Virus record (IMG/VR): IMGVR_UViG_3300034175_000063
Coordinates: 1 to 64,000 of that record
DNA: 64,000 nt
From: a virus
Reading direction: 5' to 3' (one strand)
How positions within the stretch are numbered: the first letter of the stretch is position 1; the number at the start of each line of letters is the position of its first letter. The translations under genes and the position numbers were made by a program. Below, in pieces: positions 4,552 through 21,645 of this stretch. A model generated the notes under the pieces. It saw only the letters and a program-made list of their open reading frames with translations, was not told where the DNA came from and made no database searches.

Positions 4552-4615
4552 CATCGTCATCACCCACGCATAGAGCCTGTACCTACGGGCTCTATGCAAT
4601 CAGGAGCACTACCTC

Positions 4616-5728
4616 ATGGCTAAGAACCAAGCCCCCGACGTCGGGGCAAACCCACGCTTGCGCGTGAAAATCAGTCAGGCCGTCCGCATGGTCACCAAAG
4701 CCATCTCGTGCAAATTGGTGCCCATGATTCACGGCTCGCCGGCTATCGGAAAGTCCGGCATCGTGCACCAGATCGCAAAGGATTACAACCTGATGCTGAT
4801 CGACCTGCGTTTGAGCCAGTGCGACCCTACCGACCTGCTGGGCTTCCCACAGATCCTGGCCGCTATCAACCGCGCGGGCTACACGCCGATGGAAACATTC
4901 CCCATCGCCGGCGACGCCTATCCACTCAAGCTGGACAAGGAAGGCAAAGAAATTCTGGCTGCCGATGGGCGTCCGGAACGCTACTCCGGCTGGCTGCTGT
5001 TCCTCGACGAGTTCAACTCAGCGAGCGTGGCAGTGCAAGCTGCGGCCTACAAGATCGTTCTCGATCGCATGGTCGGCAAGTACCATCTGCATGAGAAGGT
5101 GGCCGTGGTCTGTGCGGGTAACCTGGAAACCGACGGCGCCATCGTTGAGCAAATGAGCACTGCACTGCAGTCGCGCATTCTGCACCTCGAACTCATGGTC
5201 GACTTGCCGGAATGGATCCGCTGGGCCGGCCCTGCCGGCATCGACTACCGCATCCAGAGCTATCTGGAATCGCAGCCGTCGGCGTTGTATTCGTTCCGTC
5301 CGGATCACAGCGATCGCACCTACAGCTCGCCGCGTACCTGGGAATTCGCCAACCGCATCATCAACAAGTACGACGTCAAGGACGAAGACGCCTTGCCGAT
5401 GTTGAGCGGTTGTATCACCGAAGGTGTGGCCCGGCCATTCCTGACGTTCTGCGACATCTTCGACAAGCTGCCGTCGATCCACGACATCCTGATGTCGCCG
5501 AAAAGCATTCGTGTTCCCGGCGAGCCGAGCATCCTGTTCGCCATGTGCGGCAGTATCGCCCACCATGCCACGATGGTGAACATCGGCGGCCTGCTCGACT
5601 ACATCAAACGCATGCCCCTGGAATTCCAGGTCGTGTGTGTTCGGATGACCCTGGCCCGCAACACCTCCATGGTCAATGATGCAGACATGCAGAAGTGGCT
5701 GGCCATGCACGCTGAAGAGCTGTTCTAA
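4616..5728 (+). CDS. MoxR-like AAA ATPase (N4 gp24-like)
   Basis: Walker A GSPAIGKS, Walker B LFLDEFN, CAGN, STALQSR, SPRTWE. Confidence 0.85.
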   Translation: MAKNQAPDVGANPRLRVKISQAVRMVTKAISCKLVPMIHGSPAIGKSGIVHQIAKDYNLMLIDLRLSQCDPTDLLGFPQILAAINRAGYTPMETFPIAGDAYPLKLDKEGKEILAADGRPERYSGWLLFLDEFNSASVAVQAAAYKIVLDRMVGKYHLHEKVAVVCAGNLETDGAIVEQMSTALQSRILHLELMVDLPEWIRWAGPAGIDYRIQSYLESQPSALYSFRPDHSDRTYSSPRTWEFANRIINKYDVKDEDALPMLSGCITEGVARPFLTFCDIFDKLPSIHDILMSPKSIRVPGEPSILFAMCGSIAHHATMVNIGGLLDYIKRMPLEFQVVCVRMTLARNTSMVNDADMQKWLAMHAEELF

Positions 5729-5798
5729 GCTGCACCGTTTTACCAACCGGGGCTTCGGCCCCATTCATCGCAGTACCCACCCTGAAAGAAGAACCACC

Positions 5799-6200
5799 AT
5801 GAAAAAATCCTTCGCATTTTTCGCATCCGTCCTGATGATCCTGTCGTTGTCGATGGGGCTCACCGCTTGCGGTAAGCAAACCGTCGAACAGCGTGTCTCC
5901 GCCAACATCAAGGACGGTGTGCACGCGCTGACCAGCGAAGAGCGTCAGCTGGCCGAGACGAACGCCAAGCAGTTTTACAACCGTTCGTTCCCAAACGGCA
6001 CCGACGTGGCCGGCGAGCTCACCACGGCCAAAGGTATGTTCCTCGATTGCCGCCCATCGGACAGCAATGCCAACGGCATGGTTACCTGCCACGGCATCAT
6101 GCCCAAGATGAAAGGTGGCTTCGACGACAAGTCCACCCGTTACTGCGGCTACCGTCCTGAACTGGTCGGCTGCAGCGACGAAGACACCGTTCCAAAGTAA
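5799..6200 (+). CDS. Putative lipoprotein
   Basis: Signal peptide MKKSFAFFASVLMILSLSMG plus lipobox LTAC; four further Cys residues. Confidence 0.75.
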   Translation: MKKSFAFFASVLMILSLSMGLTACGKQTVEQRVSANIKDGVHALTSEERQLAETNAKQFYNRSFPNGTDVAGELTTAKGMFLDCRPSDSNANGMVTCHGIMPKMKGGFDDKSTRYCGYRPELVGCSDEDTVPK

Positions 6201-6956: not shown

Positions 6957-7246
6957 GCATCGAAGACATCCCTGAGCGTCGCAAGACCCCAGACGAGAAC
7001 GCACGCGCACTCGTCGGCATTCGTGCAGCGATCACCAACTACTACCTGGACCTGGACGCTCGCAAACACGGCAGCGTTGCAATGGACCTGGCCTTCAGCA
7101 AGATCGAGCGTATCCTCGGCATGAGCTGGGAAGACCACAAAGAAACCGTGCGTGAAGTCACGCAGCTGGCGCCGAACAAAGCCATGGAACTGCACAATAT
7201 GTTTCAGGACACCCTGATGACCACTGCCTACCGTGGAGCGAAATAG
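6953..7246 (+). CDS. Hypothetical protein
   Basis: ATGA overlap with the HNH gene; SD GAGGA. Confidence 0.65.
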   Translation: MSIEDIPERRKTPDENARALVGIRAAITNYYLDLDARKHGSVAMDLAFSKIERILGMSWEDHKETVREVTQLAPNKAMELHNMFQDTLMTTAYRGAK

Positions 7247-7249
7247 ACC

Positions 7250-7447
7250 ATGGCCCACCTGCTCTCCTACACCAGTGGGGTCGTGGGGCATGGCCTGTCG
7301 AATGACCTGGACACCGCAATAGACCAGGCGATTGACCGCTGTACCGAAATGGGTATGGGCGCCAACATCCTCAACCGATCCACCTCCGTTGTCCTCGCCG
7401 TCATCACCCCGACCAGCGAGGGCTTTAAAGCCAAGAAAATGGAGTAA
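7250..7447 (+). CDS. Hypothetical protein
   Basis: Tightly packed in the operon; GGAG upstream. Confidence 0.55.
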   Translation: MAHLLSYTSGVVGHGLSNDLDTAIDQAIDRCTEMGMGANILNRSTSVVLAVITPTSEGFKAKKME

Positions 7448-7451
7448 CACC

Positions 7452-7742
7452 ATGTCCGAACGCACCATCGTCACCACGTATTACGGCCCGTCGGCCGGCC
7501 GCGGCAAACAGAAGCCAAAGATCAAAGTCACCCGCGGATCCCGCATCGGTGAGTGCCTGCCGAACGTCACCCGCATGCTCACCCAGAATCTGAAGGGTGA
7601 TGCTGTGGTAGCCGAGGTGCACGATGAGATGTTCGGCGAGCTGCTGCTCGTTGTCACCTACTTCCCCGGCGAAAAGCTGCAGGTCACCTTCGAGCAGGAC
7701 GTCACCCGGCCCGTGTGCATCATCACTGGCTTGGAGGACTGA
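7452..7742 (+). CDS. Hypothetical protein
   Basis: Start MSERTIV after GGAG. Confidence 0.65.
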   Translation: MSERTIVTTYYGPSAGRGKQKPKIKVTRGSRIGECLPNVTRMLTQNLKGDAVVAEVHDEMFGELLLVVTYFPGEKLQVTFEQDVTRPVCIITGLED

Positions 7743-7744
7743 TC

Positions 7745-8113
7745 ATGACAACCGATGACACCCTCGACTTCGATGTGAATGACCTTCATGTCGACACCTT
7801 CCGCGCGCCGGGTCAGGGAGGCTGGTCCACGAAACCGGAAACCGTGGTGCGTATCACCCACATGCCTTCGCGCTTCTCGATAACCGAGGGCGACGATCGC
7901 AGCCAGCACCGCAACAAGGTAGAAGCCCTCCGCAAACTTCGTATCATCAAGGCATTCTGCCCTGAAGTTTTTGAATCCCCACCACCCCCCAAGTTCCCTG
8001 ATCACGCGGCCCTCCGCAAAGCATGGGACGACTACCGTGGCGACGCCGAGCTGACGCTTGACGATGCCTTCATCTTCGCTGCTGGCTACATTGCCGGCGC
8101 CTCTAACAAATAG
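7745..8113 (+). CDS. Peptide-chain release factor (RF-1 family GGQ domain)-like protein, GGW variant
   Basis: DLHVDTFRAPGQGGWSTKPETVVRITHMPS...DDRSQHRNKVEAL aligns by eye with RF domain 3 (DLRID.YRASGAGGQHVN.TESAVRITH.PT...ERSQH.NK..A); SD GGAGG. Confidence 0.8.
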   Translation: MTTDDTLDFDVNDLHVDTFRAPGQGGWSTKPETVVRITHMPSRFSITEGDDRSQHRNKVEALRKLRIIKAFCPEVFESPPPPKFPDHAALRKAWDDYRGDAELTLDDAFIFAAGYIAGASNK

Positions 8114-8123
8114 GAGCATCATC

Positions 8124-8285
8124 ATGAAAAAAGTATTCACCATCCTGGCCCTGGCCACCTTGACCGCTTGCGCATCGACCCCGATGACGCCGGCCGAACT
8201 GGCTGCATCGCACGCTCGTGAAGAGCAGCGTAACGCCATCGAGCAGGACAAGCGCGCCTTGACCATGCCTTCGTCGGTCTTCTAA
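8124..8285 (+). CDS. Small putative lipoprotein
   Basis: MKKVFTILALATLTAC lipobox; SD AGGAG. Confidence 0.7.
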   Translation: MKKVFTILALATLTACASTPMTPAELAASHAREEQRNAIEQDKRALTMPSSVF

Positions 8286-8353
8286 GACAGTAAGCACTTA
8301 CTAACCCCCAAACTGGCCGCTGATGCGGCCTTTTCCATTTATGGAGCTGCACA

Positions 8354-8653
8354 ATGTACGGTACACATCTCACCTGGTTCCAGCGTTTCCTGCAACGCTT
8401 CCAAATCACCCCTGTTCAGATGGCCAAGGCCGAGCTCAAAGACGCTGAACTGGCTGCACTTCAAAGTGTTTCCATGGCAGAATATGCCGATCTCCGGATG
8501 CAGACGCACAAACTCACGGCCGACTACCACGAAGGCCGTGCTGAGCGTTTGCGCGAGTACCTGAAAAACCATGACCGCGACGAAGACGAAGAACGTCCGC
8601 GTGTCTCCATCGTCCAGGCCATGTTCCCTGGTGAGCACCACCCAGGCTACTGA
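8354..8653 (+). CDS. Hypothetical protein
   Basis: SD GGAG; operon packing. Confidence 0.6.
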   Translation: MYGTHLTWFQRFLQRFQITPVQMAKAELKDAELAALQSVSMAEYADLRMQTHKLTADYHEGRAERLREYLKNHDRDEDEERPRVSIVQAMFPGEHHPGY

Positions 8654-8655
8654 TC

Positions 8656-9114
8656 ATGGGCGATCGTACCTGGGCCAAATTGTACGTGCCCACGGAATTG
8701 ACCGGGGCAGTACAGGCAATATTCAATGAAGCCAGCAATGAAGAGGAAATCGGCGATGGCTTGTCAGAACTTTCGTATGACGAGATGAACTATGGCAACC
8801 TTCCGGATGGTGTGCAAGACAAGCTGACTGCAGCTGGCGTGCCTTTCGATTGGGAGTGGGGCGACGGTGGTGATTATGGTGGCGGTCAGCTGCATATTCG
8901 CTTCACCGAAACTGGTGAATTGCATCTGCGTGAAGTGTACAACGTTAATCAAAATCCGAATCTGGAAGCACTGCTAGACCGGATCGACCAACCTGATGAA
9001 TTGGTACAGTTCATCAAAGATCACGCGAACAAGGTGACAACGCTCTCCTGGTACAACCAGGTTGAATACGGCAAACGCTACCGCATGCGGCAGCTAGTGT
9101 TACCCACTAAATAA
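8656..9114 (+). CDS. Hypothetical acidic protein
   Basis: 152-aa ORF; looks more AT-rich than its neighbours. Confidence 0.65.
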   Translation: MGDRTWAKLYVPTELTGAVQAIFNEASNEEEIGDGLSELSYDEMNYGNLPDGVQDKLTAAGVPFDWEWGDGGDYGGGQLHIRFTETGELHLREVYNVNQNPNLEALLDRIDQPDELVQFIKDHANKVTTLSWYNQVEYGKRYRMRQLVLPTK

Positions 9115-9170
9115 GGCGCGTCGCCGCGCTTGGCGAACCTGCAGTTACATCCAACAACCCAGAGGAAATT

Positions 9171-10379
9171 ATGCGTTTACCTTATGACCAGATCGACCGC
9201 TCAGTGCCGGTCGACTACCCAGCACTCAACAAGCTGCTCGACAAGGCCAAAGTAGCGTTGATGGTCAATGCGAACAGTGCGTTTTTCACGACGATCTTGT
9301 TCAGCATGAAATTCATGTGGGACGAGAGCTGCAAAACCGCATGGACCACCGGTCTGCGGCTGGGTTTCTCCCCACATTTCTTCCTCTGGCTTACCCCGGA
9401 GGAGCGTGTGTTTGTCCTGGTGCACGAGTGCTGCCACCCGGCCTACATGCACATCGACCCGTTCCGCAAAGGTGTCCGTAACCACTACACCTGGAACAGC
9501 GCCGGAGATCATGTTATCAACCTGATGCAGATAGCTCAGGGCTACGTCATGCCACCGATCGGCTTGGCTGATCCGCGCTTCGCCGGCATGGCTACCGAGC
9601 AGGTCTACAACACCTTGATGGCAGAACAAGCTCAGGGCTCGCCGGCGCCGGACCTTGGCGACATGGAAGACATTCGGGATCCAGGTGATGAGGCCGGCCC
9701 CGACGGCAACAAGATGAAGAAGGAAGACGTCAAGCGTGCGCTCGATGACATCCTCATCCGGGCACAGGTTGAGTCACGCATGCAAGGCGACGCACCTGGA
9801 TCCATTCCCGGTGAGATCGAGCTCTATCTCGACAAGCTGCTCAATCCGAAACTGCCATGGCAGCAGATCCTGCGCAAGTGGCTCAAGGAGCTGGGCAAGT
9901 ACGACTACAGCTTCAAGAAGCCCAACCGTCGTTTCTTCCCGCAGTATTACCTGCCGTCGTTGTGGAGCGAAGGCGCCATGGTCGACTTCCAGGCATGGGT
10001 CGACATCTCCGGATCGGAAACCGATGAGGACTTCCTGCGTTTCATCTCCGAGCTGCACGGCATCTTGAAGATGATGATGCCCAAGAAGATCGAGCTCGGC
10101 CAGTTCGATACCTGCATCAAGTCGATCACCACGGTGAAAAACGTGATGGACCTGGCCAACGTAAAATTTCACGGCCGTGGCGGCACGCGCATCACTGATG
10201 TGCTTGACCACATCGAGAAGACCAAGCCGAAAGTGGCCATGATCTTCAGCGATGGAGGCTTCCATCACGATCGCACCGGTGTCAAAGGTGTCAACGTGCT
10301 CTGGATGATCCACGACAACCCGAACTGGACCGCGCCTTTCGGCAAGGTCGTCCACTACAACACGTTCGACAAGGACTGA
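9171..10379 (+). CDS. Metallopeptidase-like (HExxH) plus C-terminal vWA-like protein (N4 gp25-like)
   Basis: FVLVHECCH, WNSAGDHVIN, MIDAS-like VDISGS, GRGGT, IFSDG. Confidence 0.85.
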   Translation: MRLPYDQIDRSVPVDYPALNKLLDKAKVALMVNANSAFFTTILFSMKFMWDESCKTAWTTGLRLGFSPHFFLWLTPEERVFVLVHECCHPAYMHIDPFRKGVRNHYTWNSAGDHVINLMQIAQGYVMPPIGLADPRFAGMATEQVYNTLMAEQAQGSPAPDLGDMEDIRDPGDEAGPDGNKMKKEDVKRALDDILIRAQVESRMQGDAPGSIPGEIELYLDKLLNPKLPWQQILRKWLKELGKYDYSFKKPNRRFFPQYYLPSLWSEGAMVDFQAWVDISGSETDEDFLRFISELHGILKMMMPKKIELGQFDTCIKSITTVKNVMDLANVKFHGRGGTRITDVLDHIEKTKPKVAMIFSDGGFHHDRTGVKGVNVLWMIHDNPNWTAPFGKVVHYNTFDKD

Positions 10380-19122: not shown

Positions 19123-21645
19123 ATGAATCATAAAACAATCCGCGTCGTTGCCGCGGTAGTGGATACGCGCAACCTCACGCTGTACAAAGAGGACGGCACC
19201 ACCGTCGTCATCGCTCAAGGTGATGTACGCCTGCGCAAGATCGTCGAACAGGCAGCACCACAGCTGGTCCGCAATGGCTGGGCCGACGTCGACATCAGCC
19301 AGCCCGAAGAACCTTCCTATGCGGACTTTGAAAAGGAGGGCAGCGGTGCTGTGAAATTCTTTCGCATCGCCAAGTCGAAGTTGAAGCAGCTTTTTGCTGC
19401 TGAACCTGCTCCTGTCGACATGACGCCGGTGCCACCGTTGTCCATCGGTCCCGTGCCTGTGTCGGCTTCGCCGACGGCACTTCCCGATGTCCTGCCGGTG
19501 ACCCCAGCTGCTCTTACCACGGCGGCTGCACACCTGGAAATCATGCAGGCCAACGCCGACATGATCAGCGATACGCTGGGCGTGGCCCGTCAGAACTGGG
19601 TCAATGTGGTGGCAGCCGTTGCTGCGGCGCCTGGTGCTGACATCACGCCGGCACCGGTGGTGACCTCCAGCCCGTTCCCAGGTGTTGGCCAGGATGGTGA
19701 TCCACAGGTGGATGACGAGCCAGAAGAAGAGGTCATCCAGCATGAACCTTCCGAGCCGGCCGTCAAGCACACCATGAACGTCGTCAACGAAATCCTGAAG
19801 CACGCCGTCCCGGTGAGCTCGCCGGAATTCCACGAAGAGACGGTGGCCAAGCAGGGCAACGTGGTGGAAGAATCGGGTAGCACCGACAAAGGCCACGGCG
19901 ACGACAGCAAGCCCGACACCATCATCGCAGTGGTGGATGGCAAGGTGATCCCCGGTATGGAACGCATCAAGACGCAGTTCGGTCGTGCAGCGAAGCTGGG
20001 CAGCACTGCCGGCGTCGAAGCATTCCTGAAGCGCCTGGCGTCCACCATCGAAGCCCGGTCGCACTCGGTTGAAGACCTGCTCAAGTTCCTAGAGCGGGCC
20101 GATCTGCCGATCGCCGACGACGGCAGCATCCTGATCTACAAGGTGCTACGCAAGAACAGCACCACCGGCAAGTACGTGGACTGTCACACCCGCAAGGTGG
20201 AACAGTTCGTCGGCGCCTACGTATGCATGGATCCGTCGCTGGTCGACCACAACCGCAACAACGAGTGCAGCAATGGACTCCACGTCGCGCGCCGTGGTTA
20301 CATTCGCAGCTTCAGCGGCGATGTGTGCGTGTTGGCCAAGCTGGCACCGGAAGATGTCATCACAATTCCGGTCTACGACGCCAACAAGATGCGTGTCTGC
20401 GGCTACCACATCATCGCTGAGCTTTCCCAGGCCCAGTACCAGCGTCTGCGGGAGAACCTGCCGATCACCAACACCGAAGACGGGCAGAAGTTGCTCGCCC
20501 AGATGATGGCCGGCAATCACATCCGTCGCACACATGAAGTCCGTATCACGGGCGGCATGGGTGAAGGCGTGAAGACCACGGAGATCCCGGAACGCAAGGT
20601 CACCATGGCCGACATTCCAGCCTCCCTGGTTTCGGCAGCCGCCGACGCTATCGAGATCTTCGGTGACGACGAGCTCGAGCACTTCGCAGCACAGCAACGC
20701 GCAAGCGAGGCCGTGCCGGCGCCGGTGTCCGATATCCAGAATCGCGTGTTCGCCATCGTGCACGAGCAACTGGGTGTGGAGCTGGACGACATTGAGCTCG
20801 ACTCGAACTTGTCGAGCGATCTTGGTGCTGACTCGCTGGACGAAGTGGAACTGGTGATGTGCATTGAAGACGAATTCAATGTGGAGATCCCCGATGAAGC
20901 CGCTGAAAGCGTCAACACCGTGGGCGACATCATCACCTACATCGAAAAGCGTCTTGGTGTGGTGCCTGCTGCACCGGTACACACGCCGGTCAAGCCGGCC
21001 CCCGTGCTGGCAGTAGCATTGTCCAACCCGGATGGTCCGCAGTCCGACACCCCAACCGATCCATTGGACGTGGTGAAGACCGTGGCCAAGGTGACCGAAG
21101 AGGTACAGCTCTCCCGCAAGGAGCAGGCAAAGGCTCTGTACGACGCCTGGAACACCGCAGCTGACGCCGACAAGGCTGACCGCTACGCAGCCCTGCTGGC
21201 ATTCAAAAAGGCCGCCAAGAAGGGCTGGGACGTGCTGGGGATCCCTGATCCCACGGTGAAGGTAAAAGGGACCGTCAAGGTTGCCCTGGCGCCGAAGCCG
21301 AACACCACGCCAAAGCTGTTCCCTGCAGTCGAGGAAGTGAAGCCAAAGCCAGCTCACGCTGATGCTGTGGCCAAGCTCGATCGCAAGGTGGTGAAAGGCG
21401 ACAAGAGCTTGCCAGTGGCGTCCAAGACCCCTCCGATGCCGAAGGTACAGCCCCCGGCTGAAACCAGCAAGGAAGATGGGCCGCCGAAGATGCGTATCGC
21501 CAAGCTGCTGGCCATTGGCCTGGACAGTGCCGGCATCGCAGCATCCGTGCTGGCCATCAAGAAGTCAGCGAAGAAGAGCTGGGAGATCCTGGGTGTATCC
21601 GAAGCCCAGGTCGCCGAGATCTTGAAGCAGACCGGGAAGTCCTAA
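19123..21645 (+). CDS. rIIB: rIIB-like protein with an embedded acyl carrier protein domain
   Basis: rIIB core LPIADDGSILIYK...DCHT...VDHNRNNECSNGLHV...KLAPEDVI..P.YDANKMRVCGY; ACP-like segment at 20728-20955. Confidence 0.88.
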   Translation: MNHKTIRVVAAVVDTRNLTLYKEDGTTVVIAQGDVRLRKIVEQAAPQLVRNGWADVDISQPEEPSYADFEKEGSGAVKFFRIAKSKLKQLFAAEPAPVDMTPVPPLSIGPVPVSASPTALPDVLPVTPAALTTAAAHLEIMQANADMISDTLGVARQNWVNVVAAVAAAPGADITPAPVVTSSPFPGVGQDGDPQVDDEPEEEVIQHEPSEPAVKHTMNVVNEILKHAVPVSSPEFHEETVAKQGNVVEESGSTDKGHGDDSKPDTIIAVVDGKVIPGMERIKTQFGRAAKLGSTAGVEAFLKRLASTIEARSHSVEDLLKFLERADLPIADDGSILIYKVLRKNSTTGKYVDCHTRKVEQFVGAYVCMDPSLVDHNRNNECSNGLHVARRGYIRSFSGDVCVLAKLAPEDVITIPVYDANKMRVCGYHIIAELSQAQYQRLRENLPITNTEDGQKLLAQMMAGNHIRRTHEVRITGGMGEGVKTTEIPERKVTMADIPASLVSAAADAIEIFGDDELEHFAAQQRASEAVPAPVSDIQNRVFAIVHEQLGVELDDIELDSNLSSDLGADSLDEVELVMCIEDEFNVEIPDEAAESVNTVGDIITYIEKRLGVVPAAPVHTPVKPAPVLAVALSNPDGPQSDTPTDPLDVVKTVAKVTEEVQLSRKEQAKALYDAWNTAADADKADRYAALLAFKKAAKKGWDVLGIPDPTVKVKGTVKVALAPKPNTTPKLFPAVEEVKPKPAHADAVAKLDRKVVKGDKSLPVASKTPPMPKVQPPAETSKEDGPPKMRIAKLLAIGLDSAGIAASVLAIKKSAKKSWEILGVSEAQVAEILKQTGKS

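Follow-up and report, generated by a model that had tools for sequence, protein, structure and literature searches.

A stand-alone release-factor domain with tryptophan in place of the GGQ glutamine, encoded by an N4-like phage

The DNA analysed here, referred to as the window, is a 64,000-nucleotide stretch. It covers the initial 64 kb of a virus record (IMG/VR record IMGVR_UViG_3300034175_000063) that is complete at 77,648 bp, carries direct terminal repeats and has a biocrust metagenome as its source run. On its + strand, positions 7745-8113 (stop codon included) hold a gene for a 122-amino-acid (aa) stand-alone release-factor (RF) domain protein, hereafter P0001, which was assigned from the open reading frame (ORF), its translation, a match to the Pfam RF-1 domain and its homologues. 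The reading frame runs from an ATG at 7745 to a TAG at 8111-8113. A Shine-Dalgarno sequence, GGAGG, was read 7 nt 5' of the ATG (7733-7737, + strand), and the ATG begins only 2 nt after the TGA (7740-7742) of the upstream gene g7452. The RF-like gene is real and intact. A 202-aa antisense ORF (7658-8266, - strand) that spans the entire gene was considered and rejected as a shadow ORF without homologues or signals, because the genome has a G+C content of 58% and the neighbouring genes, the homologues and the synteny all lie on the + strand. Many antisense shadow ORFs of this sort were picked up by greedy ORF calling, which made the calls unreliable for stop-codon usage in the window.

P0001 matched the Pfam RF-1 profile (PF00472) with an E value of 4.7e-11 and 43.1 bits (cut-off 35), the aligned part being residues 7-66 of the protein and positions 5-66 of the 116-position profile. 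A profile search of the whole genome independently recovered the same stretch at 42.3 bits, and two PHROGs (20323 and 3122, 'RF-1 domain peptide chain release factor') matched the protein as well. Pfam, VIA-align and Foldseek together delimited an RF domain-3-like fold at residues 7-77 (7763-7975, + strand), in agreement with the match to a stand-alone RF catalytic domain that the initial annotation of this DNA had proposed. The AlphaFold2 (AF2) model, which was built with a 21-sequence alignment and reached a mean predicted local distance difference test score (pLDDT) of 89.3, contained strands at residues 14-20, 33-39 and 44-48 and a helix at 54-71, followed by a conserved P-E-x-F cap at 73-76 in which P73 was conserved in at least 90% of the sequences of alignment A1. 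The best VIA-align match was ribosome-bound RF1 (Z 9.6, root-mean-square deviation (rmsd) 2.9 Å, 70 residues, model range 3-74), and across domain 3 of ribosome-bound RF1/RF2 residues 1-75 aligned with Z of 8-9.6 and rmsd of ~3 Å over ~70 residues. Foldseek likewise returned RF1/RF2 as the top matches of the model, and the P0001 family profile retrieved RF2 chains from the PDB at E 1e-24. By sequence and fold, P0001 belongs to the RF-1 domain superfamily, but it is without the defining GGQ.

To our knowledge, few motifs in biology are as conserved as GGQ, which every characterised RF-1 domain protein (RF1, RF2, ArfB, ICT1, mtRF-R and PrfH) uses for peptide release. The corresponding loop of P0001, read from the sequence as residues 21-32 (APGQGGWSTKPE; 7805-7840, + strand), is remodelled. 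Residues 25-27 are Gly-Gly-Trp, encoded by gga ggc tgg at 7817-7825. Alignment of the canonical GGQ-HVNKT-SA with GGW-STKPETV of P0001 showed a loop shorter by one residue and devoid of HVN, so that the change of GGQ to GGW and the missing HVN described earlier were both borne out. HMMER gave an alternative alignment in which W27 lies opposite the His after a deleted Gln; under either alignment there is no Gln. Since Gln occupied this position in all 245 GGQ-type sequences compared, the Trp of P0001 is not a chance variant. Both loop glycines are retained, and the scaffold residues V35, R36, I37, T38, H39 and P41 as well as R52, S53, H55, N57 and A61 are present.

Beyond the domain, a PPPP linker (residues 79-82; 7979-7990, + strand) that has no secondary structure in the AF2 model leads into an acidic C-terminal two-helix module (residues 84-122; 7994-8110, + strand), which was defined by alignments and by AF2 helices at 87-98 and 105-121. 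The PPPP and the helical C-terminus that had been noticed initially are thus both present in the model. P0001 as a whole is acidic, with an isoelectric point (pI) of 5.5, and its C-terminal 47 residues (76-122) carry a net charge of -3 with a pI of 4.65; a basic tail of the ArfB type is absent, as had been stated. The C-terminal motif AWDxYRGDxxL..D(D/E)AFxFAAG(Y/F)IAG was common to P0001 and only four metagenomic proteins, and A93, Y97, R98, G99, D106, A108, F109, F111, A112, A113, G114, I116, A117 and G118 were invariant in alignments A2 and A4. The module had no Pfam match, nothing informative was retrieved for it from the ESM Atlas, and a regional word search gave no match.

P0001 is not an RF1/RF2, ArfB or PrfH protein. 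It has the same fold as domain 3 of RF1/RF2 and shares with it the motifs DLRIDTF, VRITHxPxG and RSQHxNK..A; however, domains 1, 2 and 4 are missing and the H/V/N/T/S/A of the loop are lost. The NCBIfam RF1/RF2 equivalogs scored 46.8, 46.4 and 45.8 bits, below their cut-offs of 400, 370 and 423. The codon-recognition domain PCRF (PF03462) was detected neither in P0001 nor anywhere in the complete 77.6-kb genome, in line with the earlier statement that a stop-codon recognition domain is lacking. The rescue factors ArfB (YaeJ) and the mitochondrial ICT1 and mtRF-R (C12orf65) are similar to P0001 in combining a small GGQ-type domain with a C-terminal extension and in having no codon-reading domain, and the folds of ArfB, YaeJ and mtRF-R aligned with that of P0001 at Z 6.5-8.0. 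The basic tail of ArfB-type factors probes the mRNA channel. Whereas these factors keep GGQ and the basic tail, P0001 has GGW and an acidic helical hairpin, and it scored 11.6 bits against the ArfB NCBIfam model NF006718 (cut-off 100). Mutation of GGQ abolishes the activity of ArfB (PMC8012679). PrfH, a shortened RF homologue, also resembled P0001 in fold (Z 6.7-8.4) and gave a partial match to TIGR03072 (E 1.7e-8), but the score of 34.2 bits was below the cut-off of 166.65, and PrfH retains GGQ together with a domain 2/4-like part. PrfH is the partner of RtcB2, and no RtcB was found in the phage genome.

To place P0001 among its relatives, 1.8 billion representatives were searched exhaustively with phmmer, and 2,239 RF-1 relatives were recovered. 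The top-scoring ones were short Gln-less proteins rather than release factors. Full-length homologues that include the C-terminal module were four (P0008, P0009, P0010 and P0169; 46-52% identity), and between them and P0001 29 columns were invariant. P0001 itself was a singleton at 90% identity, with its nearest relatives at most 52% identical. At the Gln column, the 52 aromatic-type sequences had Trp in 39 cases, Phe in 11, and Leu and Met in one each; the tripeptides were GGW (17), GGF (10), SGW (7), SAW (4) and GAW (4), and DAW, AGW, HGW, PSW, EGW, SNW, RRW, SGF, GGL and SQM were also found. W27 was kept in at least 90% of alignment A1, which holds 21 representatives that are 28-52% identical. 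Hence the question raised initially, whether the W is conserved among phage homologues, could be answered affirmatively, with W or F in 50 of the 52 sequences. The two loop glycines were retained in 62% and 75% of the aromatic-type sequences, versus 100% in GGQ types. Compared with GGQ types, the positions lost were R20, S22, G23, both glycines, the Gln, N29, T31, S33, A34, Q49 and Q54. Conserved as in canonical RFs were D13, L14, I16, D17 and T18; V35, R36, I37, T38, H39, P41 and G43; and R52, S53, H55, N57, A61 and L65. Judging from these positions, the docking scaffold of the group is under the same constraint as that of its ribosome-binding relatives.

A maximum-likelihood tree of the domain contained a branch that held 51 of the 52 aromatic-type rows, with ultrafast bootstrap (UFboot) support of 88 and a Shimodaira-Hasegawa-like approximate likelihood ratio (SH-aLRT) value of 70. 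On its opposite side were 76 non-aromatic rows (74 GGQ, 1 GGR and 1 AGN) and one stray aromatic row (L035). P0001 fell within the 51-row group as sister to the P0011 group (99/85), and W and F interchanged inside the clade. This aromatic-loop clade is a grouping defined in the present analysis and not in the literature; it appears to be distinct and has so far come only from phages and metagenomes. Stand-alone phage RF domains with an intact motif also exist. The 'PGGQHVG'-type mini domains of phages (68-79 aa) and mycobacteriophage RF-1 proteins such as Nanosmite gp140 are, like P0001, stand-alone copies of domain 3, but they keep GGQ and lie outside the aromatic clade in the tree. In the mini GGQ domains of L027, L037, L043, L048, L056-L058 and L060-L065, GGQ is followed by (H/Q/T)-x-G, and they formed a clade of their own (100/96). 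A further relative, the metagenomic protein P0168 (416 aa), is RF1-like with two tandem GGQ domains, the second of them RF2-like, and may be an assembly chimera or a natural duplication.

Members of the aromatic clade were found in cultured phages, namely ORF037 of Pseudomonas phage 73 (164 aa, SAW) with its relatives in TehO and PSV3, a protein of LPPA15 (SAW), and, in T4-like phages of Acinetobacter, KARL-1 gp136 (78 aa, RRW) and ZZ1 p0148 (76 aa, SNW). These phage-borne, uncharacterised proteins share with P0001 the W, the short loop and the scaffold. They differ from it in being 30-42% identical, in having SAW, RRW or SNW instead of GGW, and in that their C-terminal parts are unrelated or absent. 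Given the lengths of KARL-1 gp136 and ZZ1 p0148, the bare domain suffices. In ZZ1 (L076), the RF-domain gene follows a tRNA cluster (Ser, Pro, Trp) at a distance of ~650 nt, with a single intervening gene, and in KARL-1 (L074) it follows an RNA ligase gene at ~1.4 kb, a placement that suggests a possible link to the translation or tRNA maintenance modules of T4-like phages. The window itself contains no tRNA gene. Clade members also occurred in IMG/VR contigs of 79-343 kb. In the longer, fused family members, no Pfam domain other than RF-1 was detected. The family is catalogued in PHROGs, and its members carry the GenBank labels 'peptide chain release factor' or 'putative peptidyl-tRNA hydrolase'. 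A full-text literature search found no paper that describes or tests GGQ-less aromatic phage RF domains. P0001 and the corresponding protein of the contig L002, which is described below, are the first aromatic-loop RF-domain proteins seen in N4-like phages; new here is P0001 as a family member with a distinctive C-terminal module in such a phage.

Several other searches returned no aromatic-type relative. Positions 7000-9200 matched nothing among phages by megablast, viral contigs scanned with the single P0001 sequence contained no relative, and a word-based protein search with P0001 gave bacterial RF fragments only. A metagenome scan with a five-member alignment was dominated by bacterial RF1/RF2, and none of its 80 loci was of the aromatic type. 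A scan of genome contigs for GGW-x7-VRITH gave 11 matches, none of which was RF-like (chance matches or phosphate-transporter genes); as the pattern is narrow, the outcome speaks only weakly for a restriction of the clade to phages. Among the contigs from bacterial metagenome-assembled genomes, L161, L166, L168 and L169 encode phosphate-transporter-like membrane proteins with GGWRIVRT(V/L)GVRITH, and such chance matches call for caution in searches by motif only.

Selection was assessed by the ratio of nonsynonymous to synonymous substitution rates (dN/dS) in two pairs of family members, since the relatives of P0001 itself (at most 52% protein identity, without usable DNA) are too distant for the purpose. 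The RRW pair, L028 versus KARL-1, had a dN/dS of 0.045, and the GGW pair, L009 versus L015, had 0.13 over the domain at a dS of ~1.2, which is near saturation. The family relatives are under purifying selection. A decaying fragment whose homologues are under relaxed selection, which had been considered at the outset, is therefore not what the two ratios describe. In a second soil study, short contigs were 100% identical to the window over 8074-8429, and no RNA data set containing this DNA was listed.

The genome that carries P0001 is that of a complete N4-like (Schitoviridae-type) phage, and the RF-like gene is an accessory gene of its middle region. It is marked as N4-like by a 3,472-aa ORF typical of the N4 virion RNA polymerase, by rIIA/rIIB together with a Dda-like helicase, by a vWA protein, and by a DNA polymerase that is ~50% identical to those of cultured N4-like phages. 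The rIIB homologue (19123-21645) has an internal part, residues ~536-612, that matches acyl-carrier-protein PHROGs. The RF-like gene sits in a variable stretch that extends from an HNH endonuclease to the vWA protein, within an accessory cassette of ~1.1 kb (7247-8353, + strand) that consists of g7250, g7452, the RF-like gene and a lipoprotein gene and is flanked by g6953 and g8354. The closest relatives, L070 and L071, whose vWA protein and ATPase are 90% and 94% identical to those of this phage, contain nothing from 7250-8285; their g6953 homologue ends at 4563 and their g8354 homologue starts at 4642. In L002, a more distant N4-like contig of 79 kb, this slot is filled by g7452, an RF-like gene and the gene for a small lipoprotein. 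Identities to L002 were 71% for g7452 and 64-76% for the flanking genes, but only 40% for the RF domain, and the C-terminal part of its RF-like protein is unrelated. An RF domain that is 40% identical between flanks of 64-76% is a pattern typical of host-interaction genes.

The 96-aa gene g7452 (7452-7742, + strand) is translationally coupled to the RF-like gene, its TGA lying 2 nt before the ATG, and in L002 its homologue is immediately 5' of the RF-like gene, the two genes overlapping. No Pfam, PHROG or PADLOC match was found for g7452. As an obligate partner of P0001 it was rejected, because a homologue occurs in L078/L079 without any RF-like gene. Downstream, a GGAG 10 nt 3' of the RF-like stop codon precedes a gene for a predicted lipoprotein of 53 aa (MKKVFTILALATLTAC...; 8124-8285, + strand) with a signal peptide and a Cys lipobox, the L002 homologue of which is in the same position. 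A second small predicted lipoprotein, also with a signal peptide and a Cys lipobox, is encoded at 5796-6200 in the early/middle region, and both are candidates for superinfection exclusion. The cassette ends in a terminator-like hairpin, GGCCGC-TGAT-GCGGCC with a T-run (8315-8340, + strand), which was recognised by consensus match only. PADLOC gave no meaningful match among the cassette proteins, the sole match being a marginal one on the flanking g8354 (E 0.004). Further downstream, a minor contig of the source run (depth 3.8 versus ~18) skips 560 bases at 8551-9112 and has 102 other letters instead. The skipped bases cover most of the gene at 8656-9114, which L070/L071 also lack, and the minor contig represents this same variable region in a variant strain that occurs alongside.

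No neighbouring gene was conserved across the phage lineages of the aromatic family. Together with the longer members, in which there was no recognisable partner domain, this identifies the aromatic RF domain as an autonomous, mobile and fast-evolving accessory module. Modules of this kind are the usual signature of host-acting genes.

What the altered loop means for activity depends on the roles of the three residues. The two glycines of GGQ adopt torsion angles available to glycine only, and release is lost when either is mutated in any way, whereas the side chain of the Gln serves in packing (PMC5799190). The initial annotation had called P0001 catalytically impaired. Given the packing role of the Gln, this could not be read from the Q-to-W change alone; it is at the level of the family that the variation of the glycines argues against canonical hydrolysis. 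As the glycines vary across the clade while the aromatic residue is fixed, and as mutated glycines abolish release (PMC5799190), the function of the clade would be something other than canonical hydrolysis.

From the conserved scaffold and the altered loop, we infer ribosome binding, the absence of hydrolysis and a biological role, and tentatively favour a reading in which P0001 may bind, as a non-canonical ligand, to the A site and the peptidyl-transferase centre of the large ribosomal subunit. P0001 would keep the docking surface of RFs and would offer the peptidyl-transferase centre an aromatic residue in place of the catalytic Gln. It would occupy or remodel this centre without canonical peptidyl-tRNA hydrolysis, and in infected cells it could thereby compete with or modulate termination, the rescue of ribosomes or entry into the A site. 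Lineage-specific anchoring or partner binding would come from the variable C-terminal modules, in P0001 the acidic two-helix hairpin after PPPP.

Several observations weigh against such a ligand. Retention of the scaffold motifs would speak only indirectly for ribosome binding. P0001 has no anchor comparable to the ArfB tail or to domains 2/4 of RFs, and the ribosome binding of a domain 3 by itself may be weak. The aromatic-type domains had a mean net charge of +1.0, versus +2.8 for GGQ domains, and P0001 has Arg at position 43 (G43R), which is Gly in 94% of the aromatic clade. A structural residue that is buried, and not an exposed 'warhead', would likewise be consistent with the interchange of W, F, L and M. 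Since P0001 keeps both glycines, it may have some hydrolytic activity. The domain tree, moreover, was based on 67 columns only, its support for the clade is moderate, and the loop columns themselves add to the split.

A more specific form of the ribosome-ligand reading, which we consider rather doubtful, is that N4-like, T4-like, siphovirus and jumbo phages share an RF-derived 'aromatic plug'. Its Trp or Phe would enter the peptidyl-transferase centre, at the A-site cleft or the pocket of the CCA end, and would freeze or re-program the ribosomes of the host as they terminate or are rescued, or else would block an abortive-infection response that targets translation.

Alternatively, P0001 could act off the ribosome, as a mimic of RF domain 3 that binds the GGQ methyltransferase PrmC or a component of a host defence or toxin system as a decoy, with a Trp that cannot be modified plugging the Gln pocket. 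We regard this as unlikely. The P0001 model did align to the RF1 chain of 2B3T, a complex of RF1 with PrmC (Z 6.8; 43% identity, 63 columns), but this match reflects the same RF1 fold, and the Trp-flanking residues, which PrmC would need to read, are not conserved. The cassette is hypervariable, absent in the closest relatives and evolving faster than its neighbours, as anti-defence genes often do, and the aromatic domain is less basic than ribosome-binding GGQ domains, both of which would suit a decoy; the lack of a conserved partner gene, of a PADLOC match and of any such case in the literature searched would not.

It is quite improbable that P0001 is an active ribosome-dependent peptidyl-tRNA hydrolase, serving ArfB-like rescue after phage-induced mRNA decay with the Trp taking over the packing role of the Gln. 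A packing rather than a chemical role of the Gln side chain (PMC5799190) would allow for such a replacement. The two glycines are kept in P0001, many bare phage domains of 68-79 aa keep GGQ, and GenBank names relatives 'putative peptidyl-tRNA hydrolase'. Across the clade, however, S, A, D, R, N and P occur in place of the glycines, but the Trp stays. The loop, one residue shorter, has lost the conserved N29, T31, S33 and A34, there is no basic tail for sensing an empty mRNA channel, and the score against the ArfB model fell far short of its cut-off. That P0001 is a captured RF fragment without function, drifting to loss, is scarcely credible, for although the protein is a singleton with distant relatives and the unusual G43R and the closest phages lack the gene, the frame is intact with a Shine-Dalgarno sequence, translational coupling and a confidently predicted fold, the 29 columns invariant with the four full-length homologues include the C-terminal module, Trp and scaffold are conserved clade-wide, dN/dS is low in related pairs, and identical fragments covering 8074-8224 recur in the second soil study.

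For annotation, the labels 'peptide chain release factor' and 'peptidyl-tRNA hydrolase' are unsuitable for aromatic-type genes. A selected, monophyletic phage lineage that swaps GGQ for an aromatic residue implies a different activity on the same ribosome-docking scaffold, and as members exist in tractable cultured phages, such as Pseudomonas phage 73 and Acinetobacter phage KARL-1, the question is directly testable. If the aromatic plug were true, inhibitors of the peptidyl-transferase centre would gain a new proteinaceous class, one that evolved from the very enzyme cofactor with which it competes. More generally, the family could show that viruses manipulate termination or rescue in a new way, or that the peptidyl-transferase centre has a further natural ligand.

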